Source of the DNA: a virus
Reading direction: 5' to 3' (one strand)
UHGV virus genome: UHGV-0069399
DNA length: 49,013 nucleotides
The position numbers were made by a program, and so were the translations under genes. The notes beneath the pieces are model-generated. The model worked only from the letters and a program-made list of their open reading frames with translations. It had not been told where the DNA came from and did not search any database. Every line of letters begins with the position of its first letter. Position 1 is the first letter of the stretch. Shown here in pieces: positions 13,268 through 39,227 of the stretch.

Positions 13268-14881
13268 ATGAATATTGTGCATTATGCAGCCATTGGAGCT
13301 GTAGCTTTCGTAGTTGTTCTAACAATTTTGGTGATAAACATCATTAAATTAAAGTCAGCCAAGGCTGATGCAGCAGAAAAGGCGGCAAAACTTGAGCGTT
13401 ACGCGTCAATCACCAATGCTGAAACAGAAGCTGAACGAATCGTGAATGCAGCTAAGCAAACCGCAGAAGAGTTAATTATTGATTCGCAGAATAACCTTGA
13501 CGAGGCAAAAGCTGAAGCAGCCAACACTATTGCAGCCAGTGAAAAAGATGCAAGATCTATAACACAGCGTGCGGAGGATATTCTATCAGATGCGCGTTTA
13601 GCAGCTAAGCGAATGAACGCAGAGGCGCTGACCGCTGTAGAAACACAAAGAGTCAAGCGTGCAGAAATTGAAAAACAGATTGATGAATTGCGTAAATCCT
13701 ATCGTGAGAAAAAAATCACTTACGATGAGCTGACGGAAGCCCTGTCAATTTATAAAGATGATATGGAATTTGCTGACATGGGGTTCTATGCACCACACTT
13801 CGATTTTGATACCTCGGCTAGTTTTCAGGATGCGATCAAGGCATGTCGCGAACGGCAAAAAAATCTGCTACGTGACAAAACTGAATTTGGCGCAATACAT
13901 TGCCCTACTGAATGGACGGTTGGCGGCTCTAAAAGTGAAGGTCGGAAAATGACCACTCGCGGCATTCAGATGACAGCACGTGCATTCAATGGTGAGTGTG
14001 ATGCAGCTATTGCAAACTGCACATTTAAAAACGTTTATCAAATGGAGCAAAGAATTTATAAAGCCTTTGATGCCTTGAATAAGATGAATGAGGTTAACCA
14101 GATTTACATCAATCGTGCTTTTTTAGATTTGAAGCTGGATGAACTTCGACTTACACATGAATATCGTTTGAAAAAACAAGAAGAACGAGAAGAACAACGT
14201 GAAATCCGCGCTCAGATGGCTGAGGAGAAGCGAGCTCAAGCCGAAATTGATCGTGCACTTCGAGAGGCTGAAGATGAAGAACGCCGCGCCCAAAAAGCGT
14301 TGGATAAAGCCCGAAAAGAAATGGAATCGAAGCTAGCCCAAATGACAGCTGAGCAAGTTGAGAAACACCAAGCGAAGGTATCCGAATTAGAACATGCCTT
14401 AGAAGAGGCATTGTTGAAAGGCCAAAAAGCTCTTTCTATGGCTCAACAAACTAAACGCGGCCACGTGTACGTTATCTCTAATATTGGTTCGTTTGGTGAT
14501 GATGTTTTTAAAATAGGAATGACACGTCGACTTGACCCTCAAGATCGAGTGGATGAACTGGGTAGTGCATCAGTCCCATTCCTGTTCGATGTTCATGCAA
14601 TGATTTTCAGTGAAGATGCACCAACAATGGAAAACATGCTCCACCAGCGTTTCAATGAGCAACGCACTAACCTAGTTAATAAGCGTAAAGAGTTTTTCAA
14701 TGTAAAATTAAGCGATATCAAAGATGCTGTGTTTGAGATCGCAGGTAAAGATGTAGATTTTATCGAAACAGCAACTGCTCAGCATTATTATGAAACAAAG
14801 GCAATTCGTAAGCAGAAAGCGGATATCATTTCAGTTGTTCCTCAAGAGGAAAAACTACCTAAATTTGCGGACGCAATATAA
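13268..14881 (+). CDS. membrane-anchored coiled-coil protein with DUF4041-like core and C-terminal T5orf172 (MUG113, GIY-YIG-like) domain; inserted accessory gene
   Basis: 537 aa on the opposite strand to the flanking tail genes. N-terminal hydrophobic helix (AAIGAVAFVVVLTILVINII), long charged coiled-coil stretches, C-terminal GHVYVISNIGSFGDDVFKIGMTRRLDPQDRVDELG...FNVKLSDIKDAV matching the T5orf172 signature. Own AT-rich promoter region and terminator. Confidence 0.85.
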   Translation: MNIVHYAAIGAVAFVVVLTILVINIIKLKSAKADAAEKAAKLERYASITNAETEAERIVNAAKQTAEELIIDSQNNLDEAKAEAANTIAASEKDARSITQRAEDILSDARLAAKRMNAEALTAVETQRVKRAEIEKQIDELRKSYREKKITYDELTEALSIYKDDMEFADMGFYAPHFDFDTSASFQDAIKACRERQKNLLRDKTEFGAIHCPTEWTVGGSKSEGRKMTTRGIQMTARAFNGECDAAIANCTFKNVYQMEQRIYKAFDALNKMNEVNQIYINRAFLDLKLDELRLTHEYRLKKQEEREEQREIRAQMAEEKRAQAEIDRALREAEDEERRAQKALDKARKEMESKLAQMTAEQVEKHQAKVSELEHALEEALLKGQKALSMAQQTKRGHVYVISNIGSFGDDVFKIGMTRRLDPQDRVDELGSASVPFLFDVHAMIFSEDAPTMENMLHQRFNEQRTNLVNKRKEFFNVKLSDIKDAVFEIAGKDVDFIETATAQHYYETKAIRKQKADIISVVPQEEKLPKFADAI

Positions 14882-21630: not shown

Positions 21631-22113
21631 TCAGCCCCTTTCGATACGGATCTGATTGCCGCCGACCACCAGCCCGCGCAGCGAGGAATAGAACCAAGGG
21701 AATGACGGCGCCGCCTTGTTGGTGCCCACTTCATACTGAACAGTCACAGCACCCTCGACACGTTCCATCGTCACCGCACCACCACCGGCAACCGAAGGCA
21801 TTAAGTCAATCTCCTGCGACTCGATAGCCATGCGGCACTGCGCGTCAACCAACCGCTGTGGGATAGCATCATCCGGCAGGTCAACACCATCGAAGCGAAC
21901 GCCAGAGCGAGGCCAAGATAGCGGCTGTGAAGCAACGCTGCGCTGCCCGCGCCATGACTTACCTTCCAGATAATCCATCGCCTGCATCAGCATCTGGTCG
22001 CACTCAGCATCATCGGTAGGTACGGTATATCCGCGCCCCGCTGCGAACGCACGCAGGTCAATAACGCCAGCGTAGGTGTTAAAGTCTGGCGAATGAGGAT
22101 CGGCCACCAGCAT
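21631..22113 (-). CDS. head-tail connector protein (gp6-like)
   Basis: 160 aa between capsid and adaptor genes; position-based. Confidence 0.6.
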   Translation of the reverse strand: MLVADPHSPDFNTYAGVIDLRAFAAGRGYTVPTDDAECDQMLMQAMDYLEGKSWRGQRSVASQPLSWPRSGVRFDGVDLPDDAIPQRLVDAQCRMAIESQEIDLMPSVAGGGAVTMERVEGAVTVQYEVGTNKAAPSFPWFYSSLRGLVVGGNQIRIERG

Positions 22114-22115
22114 GG

Positions 22116-22337
22116 TTATTCCTCCAGACGCCAGTCCAGCGCCAACCAGTTATCCACTTCGGCAGGGTGAACCTCAGCACTCAGCGGACCGTTGGGAAAC
22201 TCTGGAATATCACGCACCATGACAACCAACTCAATACCAGGCTGTTCCTGCTGGGCAGGCGCATGTTCAGCGCCGTTCTGCGCAGCAAGCTTTTCAGCCT
22301 CACGCAGCGCGCGCTGCTCTTTGGTCAATCCGGCCAT
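22116..22337 (-). CDS. hypothetical head-module protein (73 aa)
   Basis: Small ORF tightly packed between the capsid and connector genes. Confidence 0.5.
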   Translation of the reverse strand: MAGLTKEQRALREAEKLAAQNGAEHAPAQQEQPGIELVVMVRDIPEFPNGPLSAEVHPAEVDNWLALDWRLEE

Positions 22338-22376
22338 TGGGCCTCCTGAATAACAAAGGGGCCAAAGCCCCTGCGG

Positions 22377-23513
22377 TTAGCCCATGATGATGGCGGAATG
22401 CTCTTCCTGAACAGATGCAACGCCCCACGCCACACCGACTTCGTAACGCACCTGACGGTACTGACGGTACAGAGCGATCTGGAAGGTGATGCCAGAGACA
22501 GGATCGGTTACGTTCATCACATCGTCAGCGGTATCACCGCCTTTTGGCATGGCAGGAGTACGGCAAGCCAGCAAAAATGCGTTACGGTCAAAGGCAACGT
22601 TTGGCGCGAACTCGCTCAGCACAGTGACAGTTGCCTGGTCCGCCAGATCCTGACGCAGGCCCGGTGCGCCAATGGTGATGCTCGATGAGGTTGCAGCAAC
22701 GACCATGTACTGGTTGTCATCACCGTCGAACTTCACCGCTGTGCCTACAGCGATCCCACCAGTACCAGCAGAGATAGCAACAATGATGTCTCCCTCTTTC
22801 TTCGCGCCGTTGACCTTGTAGCCAGCCGCAGTGCTTTTCGCGGTACGCTTGATGTTGGCGGATTCATGCAGGTTAAAGCCCATCACTCGACCGATGATGC
22901 CTTCGCGCAGCAACTGATCGGTACCGGCTTCGTTTGCTTTGAACAGTACGGACTGCTTACCACGAATGGATGCCATCGCTTCGCCACCCAGTACCATGCG
23001 CAGGTCAGTAGTTGGTGCGCCGTTATCCACCAAAATCTGGCGGGCCAGCGCAGCATCGGATAGATCGTCTTTTACGCTGAACGGGGTATTTTTCGGCGTT
23101 CCGACGGCGCGGGAAGATTTGTAGGCCAGCGCCGCCAGGTCAGCATCCATTTCGTTGCTCAGTGCGCGGAAGGCCTGAGAGAACTGGTCAGCCAGGACAA
23201 TGTCATAGGTACCTGATGGCCCGATAGCAAGCTGTTCTTCACCATTCCATTTGACTGGGGCCATTTTAGATTTGGTGATTTTGACGTCCACGGTACCGAT
23301 GTTCTGATCGCCGTCGTTTGGCGCGGTTGCCGCCGGGGTGATATCAACGGTGGAGGTTTTCGGTGCAACGGGCGCGGTCACGGTCTGGTCTTTAGCTGCG
23401 GCATCGGCCTTAGCGTTACGGGCAACCGCCGGGATAAAGCCCACCTGCTCGCGGGATACGCGATTAAGCGCGGTGAAGATGGTTGGGATGAGGCCAGTAA
23501 GAGTATTGGACAT
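22377..23513 (-). CDS. major capsid protein
   Basis: 378 aa downstream of the scaffold gene and upstream of the connector genes; composition typical of coat proteins. Confidence 0.8.
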   Translation of the reverse strand: MSNTLTGLIPTIFTALNRVSREQVGFIPAVARNAKADAAAKDQTVTAPVAPKTSTVDITPAATAPNDGDQNIGTVDVKITKSKMAPVKWNGEEQLAIGPSGTYDIVLADQFSQAFRALSNEMDADLAALAYKSSRAVGTPKNTPFSVKDDLSDAALARQILVDNGAPTTDLRMVLGGEAMASIRGKQSVLFKANEAGTDQLLREGIIGRVMGFNLHESANIKRTAKSTAAGYKVNGAKKEGDIIVAISAGTGGIAVGTAVKFDGDDNQYMVVAATSSSITIGAPGLRQDLADQATVTVLSEFAPNVAFDRNAFLLACRTPAMPKGGDTADDVMNVTDPVSGITFQIALYRQYRQVRYEVGVAWGVASVQEEHSAIIMG

Positions 23514-23529
23514 TCAAGTTTCCTTTCGA

Positions 23530-24282
23530 TTAATCAACGATGCTCGTGCCACCGCCAATGACCGTTTGTTGTTCAACTGGCGGTAAGGCGTCGAAAGCAG
23601 CGCGTTTCATGGTTTTCTGCCCGGCCTGATGCTGCGACTGGTGAGAGCCACCGCCGCTGTTGCCGGACGATTTGAGGATGTAGTCTTTCTGCGGATGCAA
23701 CTCGACCAGCGATTCCAGCGCTTCATCGAAGCTGGCCAGTTCGCCAGGCTTGGTGCGGGAGAACACCTTGTTGCCCTGCCCGTCGTAGGCCACGACCTTG
23801 CCGTCTTCGATTTTGAAGTTCTGCCCGAAGTGAGAACGCACGAACTCAGCCGGGATCGCCATCTTCTCGGAGATGAACTTCGAACCGCCGAAGCGGCTGC
23901 AGATCATCTCGTTGTAGAGTTGGGTTTCCAGTTTCTGGTTCTTGCCGTTCGCTTCGTCCAGTTGCTGCTGGAAGACCTTGGTGATCTCAGCCTTCACCTG
24001 GTCAACGGCGCCAGCATCGATCAGTTTCTTCTGGTCGATTTTGGTCACCATCTCCAGGGCTTCGAGCGCCTTGGTCGGGTCGGTGATGCCAGCGAATTTC
24101 GCGAGACCGGCTTCCGCTGTTTCCTTCGCCTCACGGTGAGTTTTGGCTTCACTATTCAGGGAGGTAATTTTGGTCATCGCTGCGACCGCGTCGAACGGAA
24201 TCTCTTTGCCGTCGTCATGGACGTACACAGGCATACCGTTTTCAACGACCACATTTCCGTTAACATCGAGTTTGAGTTTCAT
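23530..24282 (-). CDS. scaffolding protein
   Basis: Highly charged, helical (KE-rich) protein between the head-morphogenesis and capsid genes; start chosen at MKLKLDVNG with GGAG RBS. Confidence 0.65.
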   Translation of the reverse strand: MKLKLDVNGNVVVENGMPVYVHDDGKEIPFDAVAAMTKITSLNSEAKTHREAKETAEAGLAKFAGITDPTKALEALEMVTKIDQKKLIDAGAVDQVKAEITKVFQQQLDEANGKNQKLETQLYNEMICSRFGGSKFISEKMAIPAEFVRSHFGQNFKIEDGKVVAYDGQGNKVFSRTKPGELASFDEALESLVELHPQKDYILKSSGNSGGGSHQSQHQAGQKTMKRAAFDALPPVEQQTVIGGGTSIVD

Positions 24283-24406
24283 TGTTTTGCTCCAGCCTTC
24301 CGGCCATTGGTAGTGGGTCATCCGACCCGGTCACCGCGTCGCATCCGCTCAGCGGCAGGCATAAAAAAGGCCACCCGAAGGCAGCCTGATGTTGATTAGG
24401 TTTACG

Positions 24407-25510
24407 TTACTCGAATGCCGACGCATCCACACGGCGCAGTTCCTCCAGGGTCATGAACTCCCCTGCATCGTTGAACAATTCCGGCACAGTGATTTTACCG
24501 TCACGCAGCATCTGCGCACGGGTGACGCCCAGCACCTGCTCCTGTCGCGCGTACGGCTGCCGGGTAAGCCAGTCGGCATAGCTGGTATGCGCTGGTACCT
24601 GCCCGTCCATTGACGCGCGAGTGGCGTTGCTCAGCTCGCCAGAGGGTATCTGCAATTCCTCCCACGATTTGGTGATCAGGATTTCGCCGGAGCGGCAGCA
24701 GAAGTGGATTTTGCCGGGGCCGCGCAGATACGGGATTGCATGGCCCAGCGGCCTGCCGTCAAGAGTGTAGAGCTTGCGGTCTCGAATGATGCACCACTGA
24801 CTGGTATGCGTATCCAGCGTGGATGACCATTGCTTAGCCTTGACGATATCGCTGTTGGCCTGGGCGAACTCCTGGCGCGCCGTTGCGGCCATATGATTCA
24901 CCGCGGTGCGGGTCACCACTGCCAGGTCACGGCGAGAAGTGTTAATAATTCCGTTCTGGCGGTTAAGTTGCGGCGTGCCGGCGACGCGCTTCACGATCTG
25001 CTCGACGGTTTCACCCTGAAGAAATCCGGAACGCACGGCATTGGTGATTTTATCCAGCCGGTCGGCTTCAAGCTTCTGTCCCCACTCTTTTAGCAATCGC
25101 CCCTGAAACGGCTGCGCTGCTGCAGCGGCGTAGACCTGCTCTGATGCGATGCTCTGCAGCGGAACGTGCTTCAGGATCTGCTTAGGAATGATGCTGCTGA
25201 ACAGGTCAATCTGATACCCGGTCTCATACTCAACGTAGCGCGTCAGCTCGCGAGCCAGCGCCTCGTTAACTGGCCCATAGGCCTGCTGGTTCAGGTCACG
25301 CACACCAGTCAGCAGAGAAGCCAGGCGGCGGGCGCTGTAGGTATCCGCCCGCTTGCCGTCCAGCAGCACTAACAGTTTCGCGGCTAGTTCTGCATCCAGT
25401 TTGTTCAGCAGCGCCACCATGCGTCGGGCGACGCTTGTGCCGTAGCGCGTCACATACAGGCCGTGAGCAATGGTCTCGTCCTGCAGGCGGTCATTGACGG
25501 AGCGCACCAT
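24407..25510 (-). CDS. head morphogenesis protein (SPP1 gp7 / Mu F-like minor capsid protein)
   Basis: 367 aa immediately downstream of the portal gene; size and position fit the family. Confidence 0.75.
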   Translation of the reverse strand: MVRSVNDRLQDETIAHGLYVTRYGTSVARRMVALLNKLDAELAAKLLVLLDGKRADTYSARRLASLLTGVRDLNQQAYGPVNEALARELTRYVEYETGYQIDLFSSIIPKQILKHVPLQSIASEQVYAAAAAQPFQGRLLKEWGQKLEADRLDKITNAVRSGFLQGETVEQIVKRVAGTPQLNRQNGIINTSRRDLAVVTRTAVNHMAATARQEFAQANSDIVKAKQWSSTLDTHTSQWCIIRDRKLYTLDGRPLGHAIPYLRGPGKIHFCCRSGEILITKSWEELQIPSGELSNATRASMDGQVPAHTSYADWLTRQPYARQEQVLGVTRAQMLRDGKITVPELFNDAGEFMTLEELRRVDASAFE

Positions 25511-25511
25511 G

Positions 25512-26915
25512 TCACACCTCGTCCGGTGGTGGTTCGGTCAGCGAAGATGACTCTGTCAATAGCTCGCTCAGCACCAAATCGGGATCCGCATCAGCATCAA
25601 TAAGGTTGAGCTTCTGCAGGGCTTTAATCGCATCGATACGGCGGAGGTCACCACCCTGACGCAGTGACTGAATAGCCAGCGCAGCAGGCGGGTTGAACTC
25701 TTTCGACTCTACATCCAGTTCAGTGCGGACATCGACGTTGCCACCCTCCTTCTCGCCGATGTACTCAGCCATGATTTGCAGGATGTTGTCGATCGCATCT
25801 TCCAGGCTGGTTGCCATGGTGTAGAGCGGCGACTGTTCCTGCATTTTCTCTTCCGAGGTCTGGTCTACGGACTTGGTTGAAGTGTTGTCGGTGCGCAGCA
25901 GCTTTGCGCCCGCCTGGCGCATCTGCTCTACCAGGTCGGTTAGGGACTCTTTACCAGCACTGATCGAAGTACCTGTGTGTTCGACGTATTCAAGCCCCTG
26001 TTTCTGTCGATCGGAGAATTGAGTTGCAGACGAAGAACCGATAACCAACTCTTGCCCCTCCTCCAGTCCGAATACTGTTAGTAGCGGCACCCGCGCGACG
26101 TGCAGGATGTTGTCCTGCTCACTCTGGCTCTGCCAATGCTTGATGTTCAGCAGCGCCATGTTCAGCAGCGGCGGAGAAGCGCACATAAACCCGGTGCGCT
26201 TGGTGTAGAGCGTTACCAAGGTGATATCCCTGCGAGAGGTTTGCCATTCGTCGTGTAACGCCCAGGTGGCCTGCCCTTCTGCACCGGTAGACTTCCGGTA
26301 AATCTGCACCATGCCCGGCGTCAGGAGGCGGATCTGTTCGACTTTCGTCTGCCCGAAGTCATCGCCATCCTCGACAATCACCTCTTTGATGCGCAGCTCG
26401 GTCAATACGACCTTGCCGCCGGTCATCTTAGATTTCCAGCCGATCAGCTGTCGGGGATTCAGCATCGTTACGTACGGTCGTGCGCCAGTGGCTTTCTCAT
26501 CCGCCTTGGTCTTCACTTGCTCGGCGTCCACCCGGGGGTAGTCCACCAGCGCATGGGAAAGCCCATACTGCATCGCCAGGCTGAAGAACGACTGCGCCCA
26601 TACATCCAGGCGGGTGCCTTCAAGGTCCACGTCTTTTGCGAACTCGCGCAGCTGATCTGGGACGTTCTCGCCCAATTGGATGGGTTCAGCAAATACGCGC
26701 CCAACATTCTGGTTGATCGTCTCTTCGTAGGCAGGGAGAAGCGTGGCCACTGCCAGGCGCTTTTTGTAATCCTCTTTATCTTCCTTCGGCCAGCGCGGCA
26801 GATAGGCCTCACCCAGCTGACGCATGTACAGCGTGCCGCCCATCAGGGCGTCGTTAATGTCCCACGCCTGCACCATGTTCCCATAGTCCAGATTGGGTGT
26901 TGAAATATCAGGCAT
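25512..26915 (-). CDS. portal protein
   Basis: ~470 aa directly downstream of the large terminase gene; acidic C-terminal tail. Start is uncertain (ORF-track start 27062 overlaps terL; ATG 26915 chosen). Confidence 0.8.
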   Translation of the reverse strand: MPDISTPNLDYGNMVQAWDINDALMGGTLYMRQLGEAYLPRWPKEDKEDYKKRLAVATLLPAYEETINQNVGRVFAEPIQLGENVPDQLREFAKDVDLEGTRLDVWAQSFFSLAMQYGLSHALVDYPRVDAEQVKTKADEKATGARPYVTMLNPRQLIGWKSKMTGGKVVLTELRIKEVIVEDGDDFGQTKVEQIRLLTPGMVQIYRKSTGAEGQATWALHDEWQTSRRDITLVTLYTKRTGFMCASPPLLNMALLNIKHWQSQSEQDNILHVARVPLLTVFGLEEGQELVIGSSSATQFSDRQKQGLEYVEHTGTSISAGKESLTDLVEQMRQAGAKLLRTDNTSTKSVDQTSEEKMQEQSPLYTMATSLEDAIDNILQIMAEYIGEKEGGNVDVRTELDVESKEFNPPAALAIQSLRQGGDLRRIDAIKALQKLNLIDADADPDLVLSELLTESSSLTEPPPDEV

Positions 26916-26919
26916 GGAG

Positions 26920-28491
26920 TTAAATCCGTAGGTTAGTGACTTTGCCGACTTTCTTCGGCGGTGAATGTAATACGGCGTAGCGCGTACCATCCCAGTCGTG
27001 GTCTTCTTGCTGGGTGTCAACGTCATCAGGGTTCTTGCTGTCGCGAACGAGTACCGGCACACGGCTTATCCAGCCCCGGCAGTAATCAAACACGTAAAAT
27101 GCTGGCTTCTCAGGCATGCCTGACTCCAGCTTCTTGCCCTCAATGACGGCCTCGAGCATGTCAGCAAATAATGCTGCGCCGTTCACGCGCGATCCGGGTT
27201 TCTTATTGGATGGCACCCATTTAACGCCCTGCGATTCCATCTTCTGGGCAATGGATAGCTCATCATCGCCGGTGTTGTATATAGCCCCATCAGCCGGGCC
27301 GGAACTAACCTGCTTGCAGATGCCCGGCATTATGTTCAGTTGTCCCTGCGTCACGCCGTTGAGCTTTATCTCATCCGGCTCAGCAAGTTCTATTCCCTTA
27401 AGACGTTTATCAACCCATGCCACGCCTTTTGCGACGTTCGTCGAGGACATATTCAGACCTTTGTTCAGCTCATCAGGCGGGCAGCCGTACCACTCACCTA
27501 TCAGAATCAGCGACCCGGCAGGTGGGCAGAACTGGCGACCGTCCGACAGCTCTGCGGCGGTGCCGTCAGTACGCGCCCACCATAGATTAGAGAAGGGTTT
27601 CGATTCGCCCCAGTCATGGGAGCGGTCGACGGTCCAGCTATCCGGTATCCGGAACGGTTTGATAACGTGTAGTGACGCATTCCACAGGTGGTCAAAGCGT
27701 CCGCCGCTGGTGACGTCCCAAGAGCCCTCTACCCACGCTTTACGCCGGTTAGGGTCTTTGATAGCCATCAACGTCGCTATGTATTGCGGATCGAGATACG
27801 GGTTCTCTTTAAATGAGCCGTGAATCGCAACGCGGGTAAGCGTTACATCCTCTTCCCGCTCCGTCTGCGGGTTAAACACCTTCTGCGTTTCGCGAATGAT
27901 GGTGCCGCGCGGTGCTGGCTCAATGAAGCGCTTCTTCACCCAGGTATGGCCGATGCCAAACGGGTTCGTCGTGCTGAACGTTTCCAGGGGAATAGGCTTC
28001 AGCATGCTACCGTCAGGCAGCGGATAGTTTTCTGGCCGGAACGACGAGCGACGGCATGAGAACATCATTTCGTAGAACTCGGCAGACTGCTGTTTTGTAA
28101 GTTCGTTAAAGCCGATAAACGGGAACTCCTGTCCGTGATAGTCCCAGTAGTCGCTCTCTTCTTTCCCGAAGCGGAAAAGCAGCTCCTCTCCGGTCGGCCA
28201 AACCCATCGCAATTCACTGGCGGATGCAAGATATCGAGCCCCGTCGTTAAACAGGCGATACATACGTTTTGACTGGGTAATGATGTCGGTGAGGTTTTTA
28301 TACTCGGTATCGAAAATGACACCTCGCCAGAACGAGCCATAGCCCAGGCCAACCAGTCGACGAAAGCGCGCCAACTGCGCAGCAGTCTTACCAGGTCCGC
28401 GCGTCCCCTCGTAGAGGATTTCGTTACATGGGCAACTCAGGGAGAGCGATTGCGACCCCGGCAAAGGTTTCCAGACGGCTTTATAATTCAT
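26920..28491 (-). CDS. terminase large subunit
   Basis: 523 aa; N-terminal Walker A motif GTRGPGKT; C-terminal nuclease-like region; position. Confidence 0.9.
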   Translation of the reverse strand: MNYKAVWKPLPGSQSLSLSCPCNEILYEGTRGPGKTAAQLARFRRLVGLGYGSFWRGVIFDTEYKNLTDIITQSKRMYRLFNDGARYLASASELRWVWPTGEELLFRFGKEESDYWDYHGQEFPFIGFNELTKQQSAEFYEMMFSCRRSSFRPENYPLPDGSMLKPIPLETFSTTNPFGIGHTWVKKRFIEPAPRGTIIRETQKVFNPQTEREEDVTLTRVAIHGSFKENPYLDPQYIATLMAIKDPNRRKAWVEGSWDVTSGGRFDHLWNASLHVIKPFRIPDSWTVDRSHDWGESKPFSNLWWARTDGTAAELSDGRQFCPPAGSLILIGEWYGCPPDELNKGLNMSSTNVAKGVAWVDKRLKGIELAEPDEIKLNGVTQGQLNIMPGICKQVSSGPADGAIYNTGDDELSIAQKMESQGVKWVPSNKKPGSRVNGAALFADMLEAVIEGKKLESGMPEKPAFYVFDYCRGWISRVPVLVRDSKNPDDVDTQQEDHDWDGTRYAVLHSPPKKVGKVTNLRI

Positions 28492-29063
28492 CCACCAAGA
28501 ACCTCGCTCTGCTGTTTCTGTGCTGCTGCTTCCCAGCTATCCACATTGTCGCTGGTCGGTACCAGAATAACGTTGTGGGTCGCCACGACTTTCTGTTCGA
28601 CCTGCTCTTTGAAGGCCTGCACCTTGATGTGCTTGCCGAGCAGTTCAAGGTTCTTGACCTTATCCGGCCACTTAATCTTCTTGAGCAGTGCGGCGGTGTT
28701 TCCCTCGGCGGACATCTCGACGACATCCAGCCCGGATAATGTCGTCCTCCAGACCTTCGGCCACTGTGACACTGGCCTGAGTTCACCGGTCGAGGTCAGG
28801 ATGTCCAGCACGTCCATCTGGTCTATCTCAACGAGACGATTCAGGACGTATGTCGCATTTATGCCAACCAGATCATTGCGTTGCGCTTTAAGTTCGGCAA
28901 TTCTGGCCTGGATGTCAGGTTTTGACAGGTTTTCGGACGCAGTGCGGTTAGCTGTCTTTGCGCTGTACCCCGCCCGAATAGCCGCTTGCGTGGCGTTTAA
29001 ATCGATGAGGTACTCGCGACAGAACATCTCTTGTTTGTCGGTAAGTGCCATGTTTACCTTCAA
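28488..29063 (-). CDS. terminase small subunit (Terminase_2-type)
   Basis: N-terminus LTDKQEMFCREYLIDLNATQAAIRAGYS is the characteristic small-terminase DNA-binding motif; overlaps the terL start. Confidence 0.85.
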   Translation of the reverse strand: MKVNMALTDKQEMFCREYLIDLNATQAAIRAGYSAKTANRTASENLSKPDIQARIAELKAQRNDLVGINATYVLNRLVEIDQMDVLDILTSTGELRPVSQWPKVWRTTLSGLDVVEMSAEGNTAALLKKIKWPDKVKNLELLGKHIKVQAFKEQVEQKVVATHNVILVPTSDNVDSWEAAAQKQQSEVLGG

Positions 29064-29073
29064 GGAGCAGGAT

Positions 29074-29265
29074 ATGAGTAATTATAAAATTGGTGACAAA
29101 GTGAAACTTAAATCCGGCGGACCGGTTATGACTGTTCATGACACCAATGTGCAAGTCCCAAAATATCGGGGAAACTTACGGTGCCAATGGTTTGCAGGAA
29201 AGAAACTTGAAGAAGGTTATTTCCCGGATGACTCACTTGAGGAAGTCGGGGATGACGAACAATAA
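29074..29265 (+). CDS. DUF2158/YodC-like small protein (63 aa)
   Basis: AGGAGCAGG RBS then ATG at 29074; MSNYKIGDKVKLKSGGPVMTV motif typical of the YodC-like small-protein family; opposite strand to the structural operon. Confidence 0.65.
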   Translation: MSNYKIGDKVKLKSGGPVMTVHDTNVQVPKYRGNLRCQWFAGKKLEEGYFPDDSLEEVGDDEQ

Positions 29266-29524
29266 GGATCAAACCATCCTCTGGATGCTTGAACATCTCA
29301 AAAAAGACGGATGTCTATATCAAGATGATGTAGTCGATCATTTGGTTAAAACTAAAAATGAAGACCTTTTAGTTGAGAATGCCGACGGAAATTTAGCTTT
29401 GAGTCGTCAGATTCTTACTTTGTTTATGAAACATACAGCAGACGATGTTGTTTGGGTTAAGCCGCAGCGTTATTGGCGCTATCGTGTCGCTGAGGATGAA
29501 CCTGGTCGTGAGGCCCGTGGGTAA
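29252..29524 (+). CDS. hypothetical protein (90 aa), coupled to the YodC-like gene
   Basis: ATG overlaps the stop of the upstream gene; followed by a terminator. Confidence 0.55.
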   Translation: MTNNKDQTILWMLEHLKKDGCLYQDDVVDHLVKTKNEDLLVENADGNLALSRQILTLFMKHTADDVVWVKPQRYWRYRVAEDEPGREARG

Positions 29525-29528
29525 ATTA

Positions 29529-29553
29529 AAGGGCGATCATTCGCCCTTTTCTT
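29529..29553 (+). terminator. rho-independent terminator of the plus-strand two-gene unit
   Basis: AAGGGCGA-tcat-TCGCCCTT hairpin followed by TTCTT. Confidence 0.6.
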
Positions 29554-29749
29554 CGACACTCTCTTCCAATGGCGTGAACTGCACGCGCTTTACATCGGCC
29601 GGAGCAAAATACAGCCACTGGCCCGTTTCCGTCGCCAGCGGCACAAAACCGTTAACCAACTCAGGCTGACGTCTCGACATCTTACCAGTGAAGGTTTCGC
29701 CTGTTTAGGTAGTGAAGAGATGTGGTAGATGTAGGACATTGAGCGCCTC

Positions 29750-29797
29750 TTTATCCGCTGGTAGGGATATCTAGTTTATTATCCGCTGTAGGGGATA
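29750..29797. repeat. direct repeat pair TTATCCGCTG(G)TAGGG(G)ATA, ~28 bp apart
   Basis: Two near-identical ~19-bp copies (29750-29769 and 29778-29797) in a non-coding stretch between the bidirectional terminator and the packaging-gene side. Confidence 0.6.
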
Positions 29798-29827
29798 ATG
29801 AAAAACTCACGTTCAATCATGCAATGT

Positions 29828-29852
29828 AAAAAACCCCGGCAGAGCGGGGTTT
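29828..29852 (-). terminator. rho-independent terminator downstream of the 164-aa accessory gene
   Basis: CCCCG-gcagag-CGGGG hairpin flanked by an A-run and a T-run. Confidence 0.6.
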
Positions 29853-29869
29853 GAAAGTGCCATTAAGAA

Positions 29870-30364
29870 TTAGAGTTCTCTTTTGAAAATACGCGCAGAG
29901 GCTACTTTATCTGTGCCGTTCATTCCATACGGATGTTGCGTATGGTACTTACGAAGCAGTAAATCGCATACCTCTTGATGTCTTGAGAGAAGAATTTTGT
30001 CAACATCACCCTGGTTTTTTGCATCAGGGAATACGTCTAGGTTGACCAAAAACAAAAAGTCATCTTCACCATGCGGGGTGTGAGCCACATACAGATATCC
30101 TTCATCTGCGATTTTAATTGCTGTAAAGCCTGTAACCGATGAAGGCTCAATATATTTATCAATTTCGCCTGGAGGAAGTAAACCTAGAGCATCACGAACC
30201 AATGTGGTGCAGAAAGCCACATCATTAGGATCGTCAAAGTTAACAGCTCGCGTCGCTTGGTTTTTACCAAATGTCTGAAGAATCTTTTCTTCACTATAAC
30301 CTTCTTGGTCCAAATATCTAATCCACTGATATAGGTGCGCCCAAGGATTTCTTTTCCAGCCCAT
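29870..30364 (-). CDS. hypothetical protein (164 aa), accessory gene between lysis and packaging modules
   Basis: ORF with an AT-rich upstream region and its own terminator; no family recognised. Confidence 0.65.
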   Translation of the reverse strand: MGWKRNPWAHLYQWIRYLDQEGYSEEKILQTFGKNQATRAVNFDDPNDVAFCTTLVRDALGLLPPGEIDKYIEPSSVTGFTAIKIADEGYLYVAHTPHGEDDFLFLVNLDVFPDAKNQGDVDKILLSRHQEVCDLLLRKYHTQHPYGMNGTDKVASARIFKREL

Positions 30365-30801
30365 TTCACTCTCCTTTTACCAAAGAAATCCAATAGTACC
30401 GTATATATGTTAGTTCTGTGAAATCTGTAAAATTTAATTAAGACACTGTTCTTTGACGTAGTCCTGCAGATACCCAACCTGCTTCGTCACTGTGACGATT
30501 TGCCCTCTGAGGGTGAAATAATCCTGTTCGACGGCTCAATAAGTTGGGTCGTTACCATCATCCTTACCGATGATGTTGTCTGTTTCACTCACTCAGTAGT
30601 TAGTATGGTTCTGCATTGTCCCTTCACTAATGTCGTGCTGCGATATAATTTCACGGAGGGACATCACTCCGGCACAGCACGCCGTCCCGATGGCCTCCCA
30701 GTCCGGCTTGCTCATGCTTCTTTCCTATTAAAGTAATCCCATTGATGACCTATGGTAAGACGGAAGTAAACCTGTCATCTATGCTACCGAGGAAATTCTC
30801 G

Positions 30802-30990
30802 ATGGACGAAACAATTACTGAAAATGCTATTAAGCAAGCATATAGCGTTACCATCATGCAGCTTTTTAATGTCTATCTAAATTCAGCAAACGATCCCAAC
30901 GCATCAGCAAGATTTCAGGAAGGGCTTCGTCTTGCGATACAAGTCCGAGATGCCTGTATGCAAATCGCCTCCCAAAACCATGCGCCATGA
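30802..30990 (+). CDS. hypothetical small protein (62 aa)
   Basis: GAGGA RBS 8 nt upstream of ATG 30802 (MDETITEN...); convergent with the minus-strand small genes. Weak call. Confidence 0.3.
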   Translation: MDETITENAIKQAYSVTIMQLFNVYLNSANDPNASARFQEGLRLAIQVRDACMQIASQNHAP

Positions 30991-31077
30991 ATTTATTAGC
31001 GGCTATTCACAAACTGCCATTACGATGGGGCTACCCATGGTGATGGCAATAAAAAACCGCCCGAAGGCGGCTTGTTA

Positions 31078-31407
31078 TCAATTACTTAATAACTTTTCGA
31101 TATTGGATGGGATCGGAGCTCCAGGCTCTGCTTTCAGCTTGCTTAGTCTTATGATAATAGCCTGCTTCTCCGCCTCACTCGCTGCTTGGTAATAGGGTTT
31201 TATCCCTTTAATGATATCGTCAACTGTAGCAGTAGAACCAACGCCAGCGCCTGGCTCGTTTTTATTCAAAGCGCTGTAAATAATTTCCTCAATAGCCTGA
31301 TTCATAGTTATTACCCAAAATGAGTGGCGACATACCACAACCTGTATATCGATGTAATACTCGTTGCCCTGTTCAAACTGCTCATGCTGGGGTTTAAGGA
31401 TGCCCAC
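31078..31407 (-). CDS. hypothetical protein (75-109 aa depending on start)
   Basis: ORF immediately downstream of the 72-aa gene (GTG start directly after its stop, or ATG at 31305). Confidence 0.45.
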   Translation of the reverse strand: MGILKPQHEQFEQGNEYYIDIQVVVCRHSFWVITMNQAIEEIIYSALNKNEPGAGVGSTATVDDIIKGIKPYYQAASEAEKQAIIIRLSKLKAEPGAPIPSNIEKLLSN

Positions 31408-31413
31408 GCTTTC

Positions 31414-31632
31414 CTACGCAGTATCGCCGTCAGCCGGTGAGGCAGCTTCAACCACAACCACGTGTGACATCTGGCTTTGCGCAGTTTTTTGCGCAGCTGG
31501 CTTTTTGATATAGCGCCGCGCAGATGTGTAATTCAGTCCCTGCTCTTCGCACCAATCTTTCGGGGAAATACCTGATTTGGCATGGTCGGACAGGAACCGT
31601 TGCTGAAGCTCGCCCCAGTCCGGTTTTGCCAT
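31414..31632 (-). CDS. small DNA-binding-type protein (72 aa) resembling a small-terminase N-terminal HTH domain
   Basis: MAKPDWGELQQRFLSDHAKSGISPKDWCEEQGLNYTSARRY resembles the N-terminal DNA-binding domain of P22/Sf6-type small terminases; too short to be a complete terminase subunit. Confidence 0.5.
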   Translation of the reverse strand: MAKPDWGELQQRFLSDHAKSGISPKDWCEEQGLNYTSARRYIKKPAAQKTAQSQMSHVVVVEAASPADGDTA

Positions 31633-31988
31633 GATTATTCACCAAGTGATCAATATCTATTATCGTAAGGAGGAATAACGTGTATTTTACAAAGTTTGTA
31701 TTTTTATGCTCAGAGCGTAACCATGATCATCGAAGAAGCTAGAGGCTTTTTATTTCAACAAGGTATGCTGGAAGAATGTGTTAAACATCCTATTTATATA
31801 ATTAACGGAAGTACGGATAAGCAGGATGACCCAGTGGTTTTATCTGAATATCTAATCATGATAAATAGCAACGGGGACACCATTGCTGGGCGTTCACCAA
31901 ATAGTCAATGGAGCATGTACCCCATCGCTATTAAAGACACGCACCCTAATATAACAAGTCATCTGCACGCTATAACTATCCCATAATT

Positions 31989-32549
31989 TTATTGGGCGGC
32001 ATTCGCGTTGACTTGTCTCAGCATTTCAATTTCCCGGATGCCCGCTAGCTGGTTATTCGCCTTCTCAATGGTAGCCAGCAGCGGATTAATCCATAGAACA
32101 GCCTGACAGTACGTTATTGAGCTGGCGGCAGCGGTGCTATCACCGGCTGCGTCAGCGTTCCCGGTATCGGGTTGCATTGCGCTGGCACGTAAACGGTACG
32201 CGTATTTGAGCAGCCCACCAGCAACATCAGCAGGCACAGGCAGATCACAGTTTTTTTCACGTCGTAGAATCTCCCGGTATTTGATGACTGTTCTCTCTGT
32301 GCCGGCATCTATCAGCGAATTCATGCGGCTGGCGTTCTCTGCTACTTGGTTAAACCGGTTGAAGTTGAAAGCCTGTGTAGTTATTACCGTCGCCTGTAAT
32401 GCGTTATCGCTGCGCAGTACCCGGTTGTCATTCTCGAACGCGGTCAGCGCCGCATTGCTGCGTACCAGCAGAACACAGAGCACCGCAATGATGGTTACGA
32501 CGACCACCAGCAGAATCGCGACAATCGTAATTTTGCTGGTTTTCATCAA
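31989..32549 (-). CDS. i-spanin (Rz-like)
   Basis: 186 aa; N-terminal transmembrane segment then coiled-coil periplasmic domain; directly downstream of the endolysin gene; contains the embedded Rz1 frame. Confidence 0.8.
32114..32260 (-). CDS. o-spanin (Rz1-like lipoprotein) embedded in the +1 frame of Rz
   Basis: GTG start at 32260 with GGGAGA RBS; lipobox LVGC; proline-rich mature region ([23 protein letters not shown]); wholly inside the Rz gene. Confidence 0.65.
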   Translation of the reverse strand: MKKTVICLCLLMLLVGCSNTRTVYVPAQCNPIPGTLTQPVIAPLPPAQ

Positions 32550-33118
32550 AATACCCCCGGAACTGATACCGGAATGCCTGGGTTAAGCGGCCCGAGCCCA
32601 TCACCAAGAACCTGCGGTTTTTCTGCCCACAGGCAAACTTCACGCTCAATCTCACGCCGGGTGATTAAACCCTTCCACTGTTTGCCACCGGCATATGTCC
32701 AGCGCCGTAATTGTTCGCAAGCCCCTTTTGTGTCGCCCAGGTTGATTTTGCGTAGCAGCGTGGAGGTTTTGAAGTTGCCAGCACCGACGTTGTACGCGAA
32801 TGAGTAAAGTGCACCCCGCATTGTTGCCGGGATCGGAACCTTGATGTAGGGGTCAATCTGACGTGCGATGGTATTCAGATCTTTTGTGAGCAGAATGGCA
32901 CACTCTGTCTCGGTGTACGTCTTCCCGATTTTGACGTCGCTGCCAGTGTGCCCGTAGCATACCGTCCAAACCCCAACTACATCCCGATAAGGCTGATAGC
33001 GCACACCTTCAAGGCCATCATTACCCGTTGGACCAATAATCAACGCCGCTGCGATAGCAATAGCGCCAGCGGGTATAGCTGCAATAACGCTATTCTTCAG
33101 CTTTGGTGGCATAGCCAT
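32546..33118 (-). CDS. SAR endolysin (T4-type lysozyme, GH24) with N-terminal signal-anchor-release domain
   Basis: Hydrophobic Gly/Ala-rich N-terminus ([22 protein letters not shown]) followed by a lysozyme catalytic region ([23 protein letters not shown]); overlaps the holin stop. Confidence 0.85.
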
Positions 33119-33368
33119 TGCGCCGATCCTCCCGTTCTTTCCAGCGGAAATACCAGTTCACTGCACAGGTAATAACTGTGCATGCGATACCGACAATAAT
33201 TGCCCAGTCGCTCAGGCTTAACCCTGCAATTCTGTCGGCCAACATCCAGGACACCTCTTTTGCTGTTTTAGCTGTTTCGGCATATGCCTTCGCTGATACA
33301 CCGCAGCCGGTCAGCGTGGTTCCTGTTCCATATGAAAGTCTGCTGTAAATGGTGCTCATTCTGGTCAT
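33090..33368 (-). CDS. holin (pinholin-like, phage 21 S-type, dual-start MTRM)
   Basis: GGAGGTGAGG RBS upstream of ATG 33368; two transmembrane segments; C-terminal [13 protein letters not shown] resembles the S21 pinholin tail; pairs with the SAR endolysin. Confidence 0.75.
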
Positions 33369-33479
33369 AGCCTCACCTCCGATTTTTCGGATGGCGCTGT
33401 GTGTGATGAAAGGGTCAGGCTTCACGGGCTGGATTTATCAACAAAGCACGTAGTAATTGATTCCCGTGAGCCTGAAATG

Positions 33480-38421: not shown

Positions 38422-38826
38422 TTACTTTAATTTATATATTAAACAATCCACAATATCCAAACCATTAACCATACTATTTGAAAGTCGAACTTTGCTATTT
38501 TCAATAGAGAATGCTCCTTTCATCATTTTATAAATAAAAGCAGACTCTCCTTTAGCTTCGATTGCTTCAAGTGGTATGGAATGGTATTTATTTGATCTAT
38601 TATCTCTATTGATTTGACTTATAAGGCTATAAACGAATGTAGGCCCTTTCTCCTCAAGATCACTTATTACCAAAATATATTTCCAAGAAAACATTTCCCC
38701 ATAAAAAAACCACATGGCAGCGGATAAAGCTACTCCTTTCTTCTCTAACTCTTTCATTAGAAATTGGCCAGAATTTTCCATAGAGGTCGTCATTGAGTGA
38801 CCTATTACCAGTGACTTCTTACCCAT
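38422..38826 (-). CDS. hypothetical protein (134 aa), downstream partner of the HEPN-like gene; possible degenerate minimal nucleotidyltransferase
   Basis: Very AT-rich; start overlaps the HEPN-like gene's 3' end by ~22 nt; contains a G-E-x11-S-D-L-E stretch loosely resembling the MNT G[SG]-x9-13-DxD motif. Confidence 0.6.
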   Translation of the reverse strand: MGKKSLVIGHSMTTSMENSGQFLMKELEKKGVALSAAMWFFYGEMFSWKYILVISDLEEKGPTFVYSLISQINRDNRSNKYHSIPLEAIEAKGESAFIYKMMKGAFSIENSKVRLSNSMVNGLDIVDCLIYKLK

Positions 38827-39227
38827 TGCAAAACTCCAGATTGATTATTCTCAGCTGCTTCGATGAGCTGCTCCGCCATAGCCCGACTGATAGTAGTTTC
38901 GTAGCGGAGTTGTTCACTCCAATCCTTCATAACAGTCCAAAATATTTCAAACTGCCCATCCTGGGCAGCTAATTGTCTATGTGATAGTTGTAGGCTCGCC
39001 ACCTGCATGAGCTTTGTTAGATCATGAACATGTGAGTCCATGGCTAACTTCTTGTCAGGAAATTGAAATGCCGTCACATTTTTTGCTATACATGCTTTAA
39101 GAGCGCACTCAACTGCGTATCCGCAGAGGTAGTATGCACCATGATATAATCCATTCTGTAACAGACATTTTGCTTCCGTTAACCTTATACCAGTTAAAAC
39201 TTCTAGGTCAGATTTATTCATTTGCAA
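38805..39227 (-). CDS. HEPN-like domain protein (140 aa)
   Basis: GAYYLCGYAVECALKACIAK ... HDLTKL ... RYETT pattern resembles HEPN-superfamily helices; AT-rich; first gene of an overlapping pair. Confidence 0.6.
   Translation of the reverse strand: MQMNKSDLEVLTGIRLTEAKCLLQNGLYHGAYYLCGYAVECALKACIAKNVTAFQFPDKKLAMDSHVHDLTKLMQVASLQLSHRQLAAQDGQFEIFWTVMKDWSEQLRYETTISRAMAEQLIEAAENNQSGVLQWVRSHW

Follow-up and report, generated by a model that had tools for sequence, protein, structure and literature searches.

The virus genome UHGV-0069399, analysed here as a stretch of 49,013 nucleotides that we call the window, carries a moron in the junction between its lysis and packaging genes. It is a single gene of 164 codons, inserted between conserved modules with presence/absence variation, followed by its own terminator and deviating in base composition; from its upstream sequence it may also have promoter activity of its own. 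The encoded protein belongs to a family that is uncharacterised, extremely rare and structurally almost unmatched. Its product is probably a non-enzymatic binding or sensor protein, and a candidate role in defence or exclusion is plausible.

Genomic setting of the gene

According to the original prediction, a single 164-aa accessory gene occupies positions 29870–30364, between the lysis cassette and the packaging genes. Exactly this ORF is present, with the spanin gene Rz on one side and terS on the other; to this we add the strand, previously unstated, which is minus, the strand of the late operon. The region contains the following features:

33090–33425, minus strand: holin gene of the lysis cassette
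32546–33118, minus strand: lysozyme gene of the lysis cassette
31989–32549, minus strand: spanin gene Rz of the lysis cassette, complete copy
30440–30640, minus strand: Rz pseudogene stub, the C-terminal ~70 codons of a foreign Rz of the L001/L011 type, directly 5′ of the cassette
29870–30364, minus strand: target ORF, 164 aa, ATG start (coordinates include the stop codon)
29628–30548, minus strand: block common with a Pantoea prophage (blastn, 86% DNA identity to L001 7816–8711)
28488–29063, minus strand: terS (Terminase_2, E 1.4e-40), adjoined by terL and the portal gene

The target ORF thus sits in a 2.9-kb stretch between Rz and terS that has 44% GC, and the packaging module that follows represents a P22/HK639-like set. 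The Rz stub is distinct from the complete Rz of the window, which is 1.4 kb upstream of it. By tblastn, the stub shares 44% aa identity (E 3e-13) with residues 87–156 of the L001 Rz, whose length is 157 aa as called here versus 153 aa in the L001 gene table. The 86%-identity block comprises the Rz tail, the predicted promoter, the ORF, the terminator and ~240 bp downstream, and DNA identity between the window and L001 is confined to it. Upstream of the target, DNA homology extends to 30548 in the case of L001 and to 30569 in the case of L010. Because the shared block starts inside the 3′ end of Rz and an Rz stub precedes the gene, the cassette entered by recombination through the Rz tail. Entry would have occurred by homologous recombination, with the 3′ end of Rz as one arm and the stub left in front of the gene.

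The gap between Rz and terS holds further small ORFs. A 72-aa ORF at 31414–31632 (minus) corresponds to the N-terminal 58 residues of the L001/L012-type Terminase_2 TerS (72% aa identity, E 2e-24) and, judging by this similarity, is a terS remnant. It is followed on its 3′ side by a 109-aa ORF without an assigned function (31078–31407, minus), which has its own terminator at 31073–31054. Viewed as scars, the Rz stub, the terS remnant and the 109-aa ORF suggest that several cassettes in this gap have been stacked by recombination. Between the target and terS, 29074–29524 holds two small genes on the plus strand, which converge with the late operon. The product of one is a DUF2158 protein (63 aa, E 5e-16), that of the other belongs to DUF6953 (90 aa, E 4e-23), and both genes are kept in sibling contigs L036–L040. 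Just 3′ of the target terminator there is also a partly palindromic direct repeat, TTATCCGCTGGTAGGGATA / TTATCCGCTGTAGGGGATA, at 29751–29797, with the copies 28 bp apart. Its core GTAGGGGATAA recurs close to the homologue in L008, L011 and, on the upstream side, L007. A search of the window with the 13-nt core CTGTAGGGGATAA, allowing up to two mismatches, gave one match versus 0.58 expected, which is not significant. The repeat might serve as an operator or in packaging, or mark a module boundary.

Outside this gap, the early region of the window contains, at 38422–39227 (minus), a HEPN-domain gene (140 aa, E 3e-6) overlapping a gene for a 134-aa partner without a Pfam match; the two may constitute a toxin–antitoxin or defence pair. 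The tail gene block contains a further accessory insertion on the opposite strand, a 537-aa gene with DUF4041 and T5orf172/MUG113 domains (13268–14881, plus). The window opens with two plus-strand genes, at 50–721 and 952–2022: one for an SRAP (YedK-like) protein and an ORF of 356 aa without a Pfam match. The best genome match of the 356-aa ORF (62%) is to an Aquimonas MAG.

Predicted expression signals

The ORF is framed by the following elements:

30393–30422, minus strand: predicted sigma-70-like promoter match TTCACA-18-TACTAT, with the −10 element ending 28 nt before the ATG
30371–30376, minus strand: strong Shine-Dalgarno sequence AAGGAG, 6 nt 5′ of the ATG, read from the sequence
29825–29852, minus strand: intrinsic terminator with an 8-bp G+C-rich stem, a 6-nt loop and a T-run

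The start codon is fixed by the N-terminus MGWKRNPW, which is invariant across homologues, and the AAGGAG sequence in front of it is unchanged in all five aligned loci. In the same five-locus alignment, the 70-bp intergenic region is variable apart from the −35 and −10 hexamers and the Shine-Dalgarno sequence. The two hexamers stand at the same distance from each other in L008, L001, L010 and L011, some of which are only ~73–75% identical at the DNA level. In L010 and L011, the −10 element reads TAATAT, a change that even improves the promoter-like element. The original prediction had given the gene its own promoter. Conservation of hexamers and spacing in diverged loci speaks for this part of the claim; however, the match scores only 9/12, and sites this close to the consensus are not above chance (3 found versus 6.6 expected from shuffles). 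We infer promoter function from the hexamer match together with its positional conservation. The AT-rich upstream region, also part of that prediction, is borne out by base composition, and the ORF itself is equally AT-rich.

The terminator of the original prediction is confirmed. The hairpin AAACCCCGCTCTGCCGGGGTTT at 29852–29831 (minus), followed by TTTT, begins 18 nt past the stop codon; its folding energy of −11.7 kcal/mol corresponds to z = −2.4, and two of 200 shuffles fold equally well. In L010 and L011, the stem displays a compensatory change from A-U to G-C in the five-locus alignment. Moreover, every prophage copy of the gene has a terminator 3′ of it, in the form of five different, unrelated hairpin sequences at the same position. 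Terminator-like sites are enriched in the region as a whole (11 found within 28900–32100 versus 3.2 expected).

A perfect 10-bp inverted repeat (30345–30354 / 30382–30391) would pair the 5′ UTR with codons 4–7 and hold the Shine-Dalgarno sequence and the ATG in its loop. Since shuffled sequence folds just as well (z −0.39), we dropped it as a candidate regulatory hairpin. Neither Rfam nor a tRNA scan gave a match in the interval.

Selection, base composition and rarity

Substitution patterns indicate that the gene is under purifying selection, with dN/dS of 0.08–0.18. By the Nei–Gojobori method, the unsaturated pairs gave 0.087 for the window and L001, 0.136 for the window and L008, and 0.176 for L010 and L011; in more distant pairs, dS was saturated and dN was about 0.09–0.26. 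The length of 164 aa is unchanged in six cassette copies, even though their DNA has diverged down to ~70% identity. These observations bear on the explanation that the ORF is non-functional, either open by chance or the decaying remains of a gene in a zone scarred by recombination. The surrounding 3 kb indeed contain remnants, such as the Rz stub and the N-terminal terS fragment. Yet the low dN/dS values, the conserved length, start and Shine-Dalgarno sequence, and two confident AlphaFold2 folds (see below) all contradict this explanation; it is excluded by the selection analysis, and we give it virtually no credence.

With 41.6% GC overall and 34.5% at third codon positions, the target ORF differs markedly from its neighbors, which average 56% in the packaging and head genes (22000–29063) and 52% in the lysis genes. 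Close homologues have ~41–43% GC irrespective of the phage in which they reside. The low GC relative to flanking genes and its recurrence in close homologues point to a foreign origin of the gene.

Homologues turned out to be very scarce. Only six were found among 5.8 billion clustered proteins, and a profile search of 1.84 billion representatives gave 21 matches, ~17 of them genuine clusters. From the representative search we excluded P0020, P0023 and P0025, which are Ig/fn3/FG-GAP repeat proteins; P0027 (548 aa, five stretches, E 9.7e-4) was dropped as a multi-stretch match that looked similar. The family was not found in 50,697 phage records (megablast of the locus and tblastn) or in 72,556 plasmid records (tblastn). 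Megablast of the locus against E. coli genomes gave no match, nor was the family found in a scan of species-representative genomes. In public data, the exact target protein appears only as a "hypothetical protein" of a Caudoviricetes MAG, and its 90% cluster has members from Klebsiella aerogenes, Citrobacter sp. and, as an unverified assignment, Pantoea agglomerans.

Homologues occupy the same slot in diverse prophages

In at least six prophage backbones, homologues are located directly 3′ of the spanin gene, on the late strand and before terS or an HNH gene. This post-spanin position holds down to 47% aa identity, in combination with lysis cassettes of two unrelated types and terminases of three types or more. 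The lysis cassette is of the holin_2_1/lysozyme/Rz type in L001, L009, L012 and L014, and of the holin_8/holin_3_7/GH19 type in L006, L015 and L007. On the packaging side, Terminase_2 and Terminase_6 are present in L001 and L012, HNH, Terminase_4 and TerL_ATPase in L006, HNH and TerL in L007, and TerL in L011. The intergenic gap between Rz and the gene is ~70–100 bp in L001, L011 and L012.

A presence/absence comparison among related phages, which had been proposed as a check, found the gene present, absent or truncated. It is present in the sibling L008 and missing from phages of the database with related flanking modules, such as HK639, HK225 and mEp237. In three viral contigs, L016 (5600–5779), L017 (1755–1934) and L018 (8001–8180), tblastn matches cover residues 1–61 only and are located right after Rz. 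The rest of the slot is filled by opposite-strand ORFs of 127 and 273 aa in L016 and L017, respectively, and L018 ends 33 bp past the match. The 61-aa fragments in L016 and L017 show that cargo has been replaced within the gene. Since no phage record has the gene despite the presence of flanking-module relatives, and since it is cut to 61 codons in L016–L018, the gene is dispensable for the lytic cycle.

The constancy of the position could also mean that the gene encodes a late accessory factor of the phage's own lytic cycle, expressed mainly by Q-antiterminated read-through. From the cytoplasm, such a factor would adjust the timing of lysis through holin or spanin, or it would assist when DNA packaging begins. 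Every lambdoid copy is on the late strand, right after the spanin gene and before terS or HNH, whatever the lysis and terminase types, and the gaps to Rz noted above are short enough to fit. However, such a factor would hardly be missing from all 50,697 phages, including close relatives of the lysis and terminase modules, or be truncated as in L016–L018. The terminator behind every copy, the conserved promoter-like site and the foreign GC content count against it as well, as do distant members whose surroundings (ICE-like, filamentous-phage or genomic-island) contain neither lysis nor packaging genes. Finally, the protein has neither a membrane segment nor a match to a lysis or packaging family. 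We regard this explanation as improbable.

Some of the neighboring genes resemble candidate defence cargo. The Pantoea prophage L001 has a 96% identical copy of the target protein, and its next gene (L001 9105–10151) encodes a 348-aa RelA_SpoT protein that matches the PADLOC defence candidate PDC-S33 with an E-value of 1.6e-117; a corresponding gene is present in L002–L005 and L009. This neighbor lends indirect support to the earlier suggestion that the slot is used for defence cargo, but the gap in the window has no RelA_SpoT gene. A weaker RelA_SpoT/PDC-S33 match was observed in the Atlantibacter prophage L006 (3898–4890), beside an NA37 gene and between Q and holin. We considered the RelA_SpoT neighbor as a functional partner or antitoxin of the target and rejected this, given that a terminator and ~600 bp separate the two genes in L001. 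The absence of a RelA_SpoT gene from the window gap also argues against coupling, and so does the arrangement in L006, where the two genes are 3 kb apart and on different strands. No partner gene is conserved across contexts, and therefore we treat the gene as a single-gene unit.

Predicted structure and sequence features of the protein

Two independent AlphaFold2 runs, based on 7 and 22 aligned sequences, produced the same architecture with mean pLDDT values of 87 and 83. In these models the protein is composed of two domains. The N-terminal helical domain (~1–72) contains helices at residues 9–20, 25–31 and 46–59. The C-terminal alpha+beta domain (~75–164) has strands at 79–86, 89–95 and 103–108, helices at 118–127 and 129–142, and a final strand at 157–159. 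The holin and Rz encoded in the window reach maximum KD19 values of 1.99 and 3.58, respectively, the target protein one of 0.84. Hydropathy thus revealed no transmembrane segment, and we read the product as soluble and cytoplasmic. The protein is acidic (pI 5.45), as are most family members (pI 4.6–6.5). Conservation across the family falls almost entirely on hydrophobic residues, Gly and Pro; polar residues are conserved only at E67, E88, E100/D101, H141 and D/E163. Among these, H141, E88 and E67 could represent an unrecognised active or metal site.

The original prediction had recognised no motif in the sequence, and profile searches agree. Pfam, PHROGs and NCBIfam returned no significant match (we took PHROG E-values of 0.14 and 0.24, the best obtained, for noise), and no PADLOC-DB v2 family matched at E ≤ 1. 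For the original suggestion of a lysogenic-conversion or defence gene, the searches yielded no direct evidence, with neither an effector nor an enzyme motif in the protein. Neither a lysis nor a structural role, with which the original prediction had contrasted its proposal, was found when we looked for it: the protein matches no lysis family in Pfam or PHROG and no virion family, and of the marks of lysis proteins (a transmembrane segment, signal or lipobox, or a muralytic domain) it shows none. No HTH was detected by Pfam either. In a profile search of PDB sequences, the sole match was Peroxin-14 (E 1.1), which we rejected. Foldseek searches, with the first model against BFVD and with the second against PDB, gave nothing at E ≤ 0.001.

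The C-terminal domain brings to mind DUF1488 (PF07369), a family which we take to include Shewanella Shew_3726 (PDB 2gpi) and E. coli YrdB. DUF1488 proteins are uncharacterised single-domain proteins of ~85 aa (YrdB: PMC4006907), and the 2gpi structure has a left-handed crossover between its last two parallel strands (PMC2954204). The 2gpi fold is of the alpha+beta type, with a four-stranded mixed sheet and a conserved C-terminal strand; we call the modeled C-terminal domain at most DUF1488-like in topology and do not count it as a member of the family. Membership was rejected by both Pfam and hhalign. PF07369 did not match the target protein at E ≤ 1 or any of 22 family members at E ≤ 10, and hhalign of the family against a YrdB alignment gave a probability of 0.2% and an E-value of 0.28, this alignment being narrow (members ≥67% identical). 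The Foldseek search of PDB with the second model did not recover 2gpi. The literature on DUF1488/YrdB function, or on defence genes in this slot, offered no functional information applicable here.

A small, acidic, soluble protein of this kind might serve in counter-defence, neutralising a host immune protein or sequestering a signal molecule during infection or induction. It has no enzyme motif, is encoded by a single-gene unit with a patchy distribution in mobile elements, and, as far as its sequence tells, probably acts by binding. Known anti-defence genes are usually early, whereas the target lies at the end of the lysis cassette with a terminator and a housekeeping-type predicted promoter. 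Similarity to viral predicted structures in BFVD or to solved inhibitor structures is lacking, and the fusions to XRE domains described below would be unexpected for inhibitors. In our view, a counter-defence role is quite unlikely.

Distant relatives and the link to XRE regulators

Two distant family members, P0010 and P0011, have an XRE HTH_3 domain N-terminal to the complete module; they are only 27–35% identical to the window protein. P0011 adjoins an integrase, a TrwB-type coupling protein and an MmeI-type restriction-modification enzyme, which amounts to an ICE-like setting. Another member, P0019, is free-standing; its gene lies between two filamentous prophages and has an XRE HTH gene 280 bp upstream. 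Hairpins separate the two genes (L030), which therefore need not form an operon. P0017 stands alone in an island that also encodes an Abi_C protein, and N-terminal extensions of other, unrecognised kinds are present in P0014, P0016 and P0018. Only 3 of ~17 clusters show a link to XRE HTH domains. Because no partner gene is conserved, the family is best viewed as cargo of several kinds of mobile elements. In the XRE-fused proteins, the module occupies the place that, in the usual arrangement, suggests a signal- or partner-binding domain.

From these relatives one might propose that the target is a partner of an XRE repressor, an anti-repressor or co-repressor in the manner of SinI/SinR, which tunes lysogeny or induction of its own prophage or of a co-resident element. 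The proposal draws on the full module being the C-terminal domain of P0010 and P0011, and on the free-standing P0019 following an XRE HTH gene in a filamentous-prophage immunity region. On the other hand, BLAST labelling of the window ORFs finds the module in the target alone, the immunity region (~42–43 kb in the window) is far from it, and the fusions are few and distant in sequence. We attach a low probability to this proposal.

Proposed function

The explanation that we favor, although we hold it with somewhat less than even confidence, combines a moron with its own weak promoter and late read-through, a binding protein as the product, and a benefit in phage–phage conflict. A lambdoid or P22-like prophage would have acquired a cassette of promoter, ribosome-binding site, ORF and terminator where its spanin gene adjoins terS, a junction prone to recombination. 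Its predicted weak sigma-70 promoter probably drives the gene in the lysogen, and, given the late-strand position, Q-antiterminated late transcripts probably read through it as well. Instead of catalysing a reaction, the product would bind or sense a protein or small ligand; this is proposed because the module occurs fused to XRE HTH domains and because the conserved positions are almost all in the hydrophobic core. The most likely benefit would be in phage–phage conflict, with the protein protecting the lysogen from other phages, or excluding them, by binding one of their components. We arrive at this benefit because the slot carries defence-type cargo, the gene has moron features and it is dispensable for the lytic cycle.

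Several observations weigh against the favored explanation. The protein has no toxic or effector domain of the sort usual in single-gene abortive-infection systems, and no similarity to a PADLOC model. The promoter match is weak and no better than in shuffled sequence, and the strict post-spanin position on the late strand fits a late-expressed function equally well. Furthermore, the XRE link rests on few clusters, and in L030 the adjacency is broken by hairpins.

A more far-reaching proposal, which we consider rather doubtful, is that the family represents new sensor or binding modules of mobile elements with an essentially new two-domain fold. In lambdoid prophages, its members would be single-gene, non-enzymatic anti-phage exclusion factors or modulators of XRE repressors, and where fused to XRE HTH domains, in ICEs and filamentous-phage regions, they would be the signal-receiving domain of immunity regulators.

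If the gene has a phenotype, a very small and very rare new family would be added to the temperate-phage cargo found at the lysis–packaging junction. It would also be the first functional lead for a fold whose only echo so far is DUF1488, itself uncharacterised. As it stands, the gene is one more hypothetical protein in a well-known genomic slot. The locus nevertheless illustrates how cargo builds up, with cassettes bounded by the 3′ end of Rz and the 5′ end of terS, stacked by recombination and leaving stubs as scars.

Comparison with known systems

Relative to DUF1488, the target protein has an extra helical domain of 72 aa, and the two show no sequence relation. The comparison with PDC-S33 concerns location: in the Pantoea prophage, this defence candidate shares the Rz–terS gap with the 96% identical homologue of the target, but the two proteins have no sequence or domain similarity, their genes are set apart by the terminator and spacer mentioned above, and the gap of the window has no RelA_SpoT gene.

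In the logic of the SinR/SinI type, an XRE regulator with a C-terminal accessory domain is accompanied by a free-standing homologue of such a domain. The family resembles this type in that the module occurs both fused to XRE HTH_3 and on its own. Unlike XRE regulators, the window protein has no HTH, and no cognate HTH-fused paralogue is known in the prophage.

A close parallel is provided by the morons of lambdoid phages, which are promoter–gene–terminator units between conserved modules, such as lambda bor and lom and the morons of HK97 and HK022. A moron at the lysis–packaging junction is a well-known kind of element, and an ORF like the target is unsurprising there. Like these morons, the target is a single extra ORF between modules, with its own terminator, a sigma-70-like match, deviating GC and presence/absence variation. 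The products of most characterised morons at the lysis end, for example bor, are envelope proteins, and the genes frequently run on the other strand. In contrast to the bor type, the target protein is predicted to be cytoplasmic and its gene is on the late strand, so that it would also be read through late.
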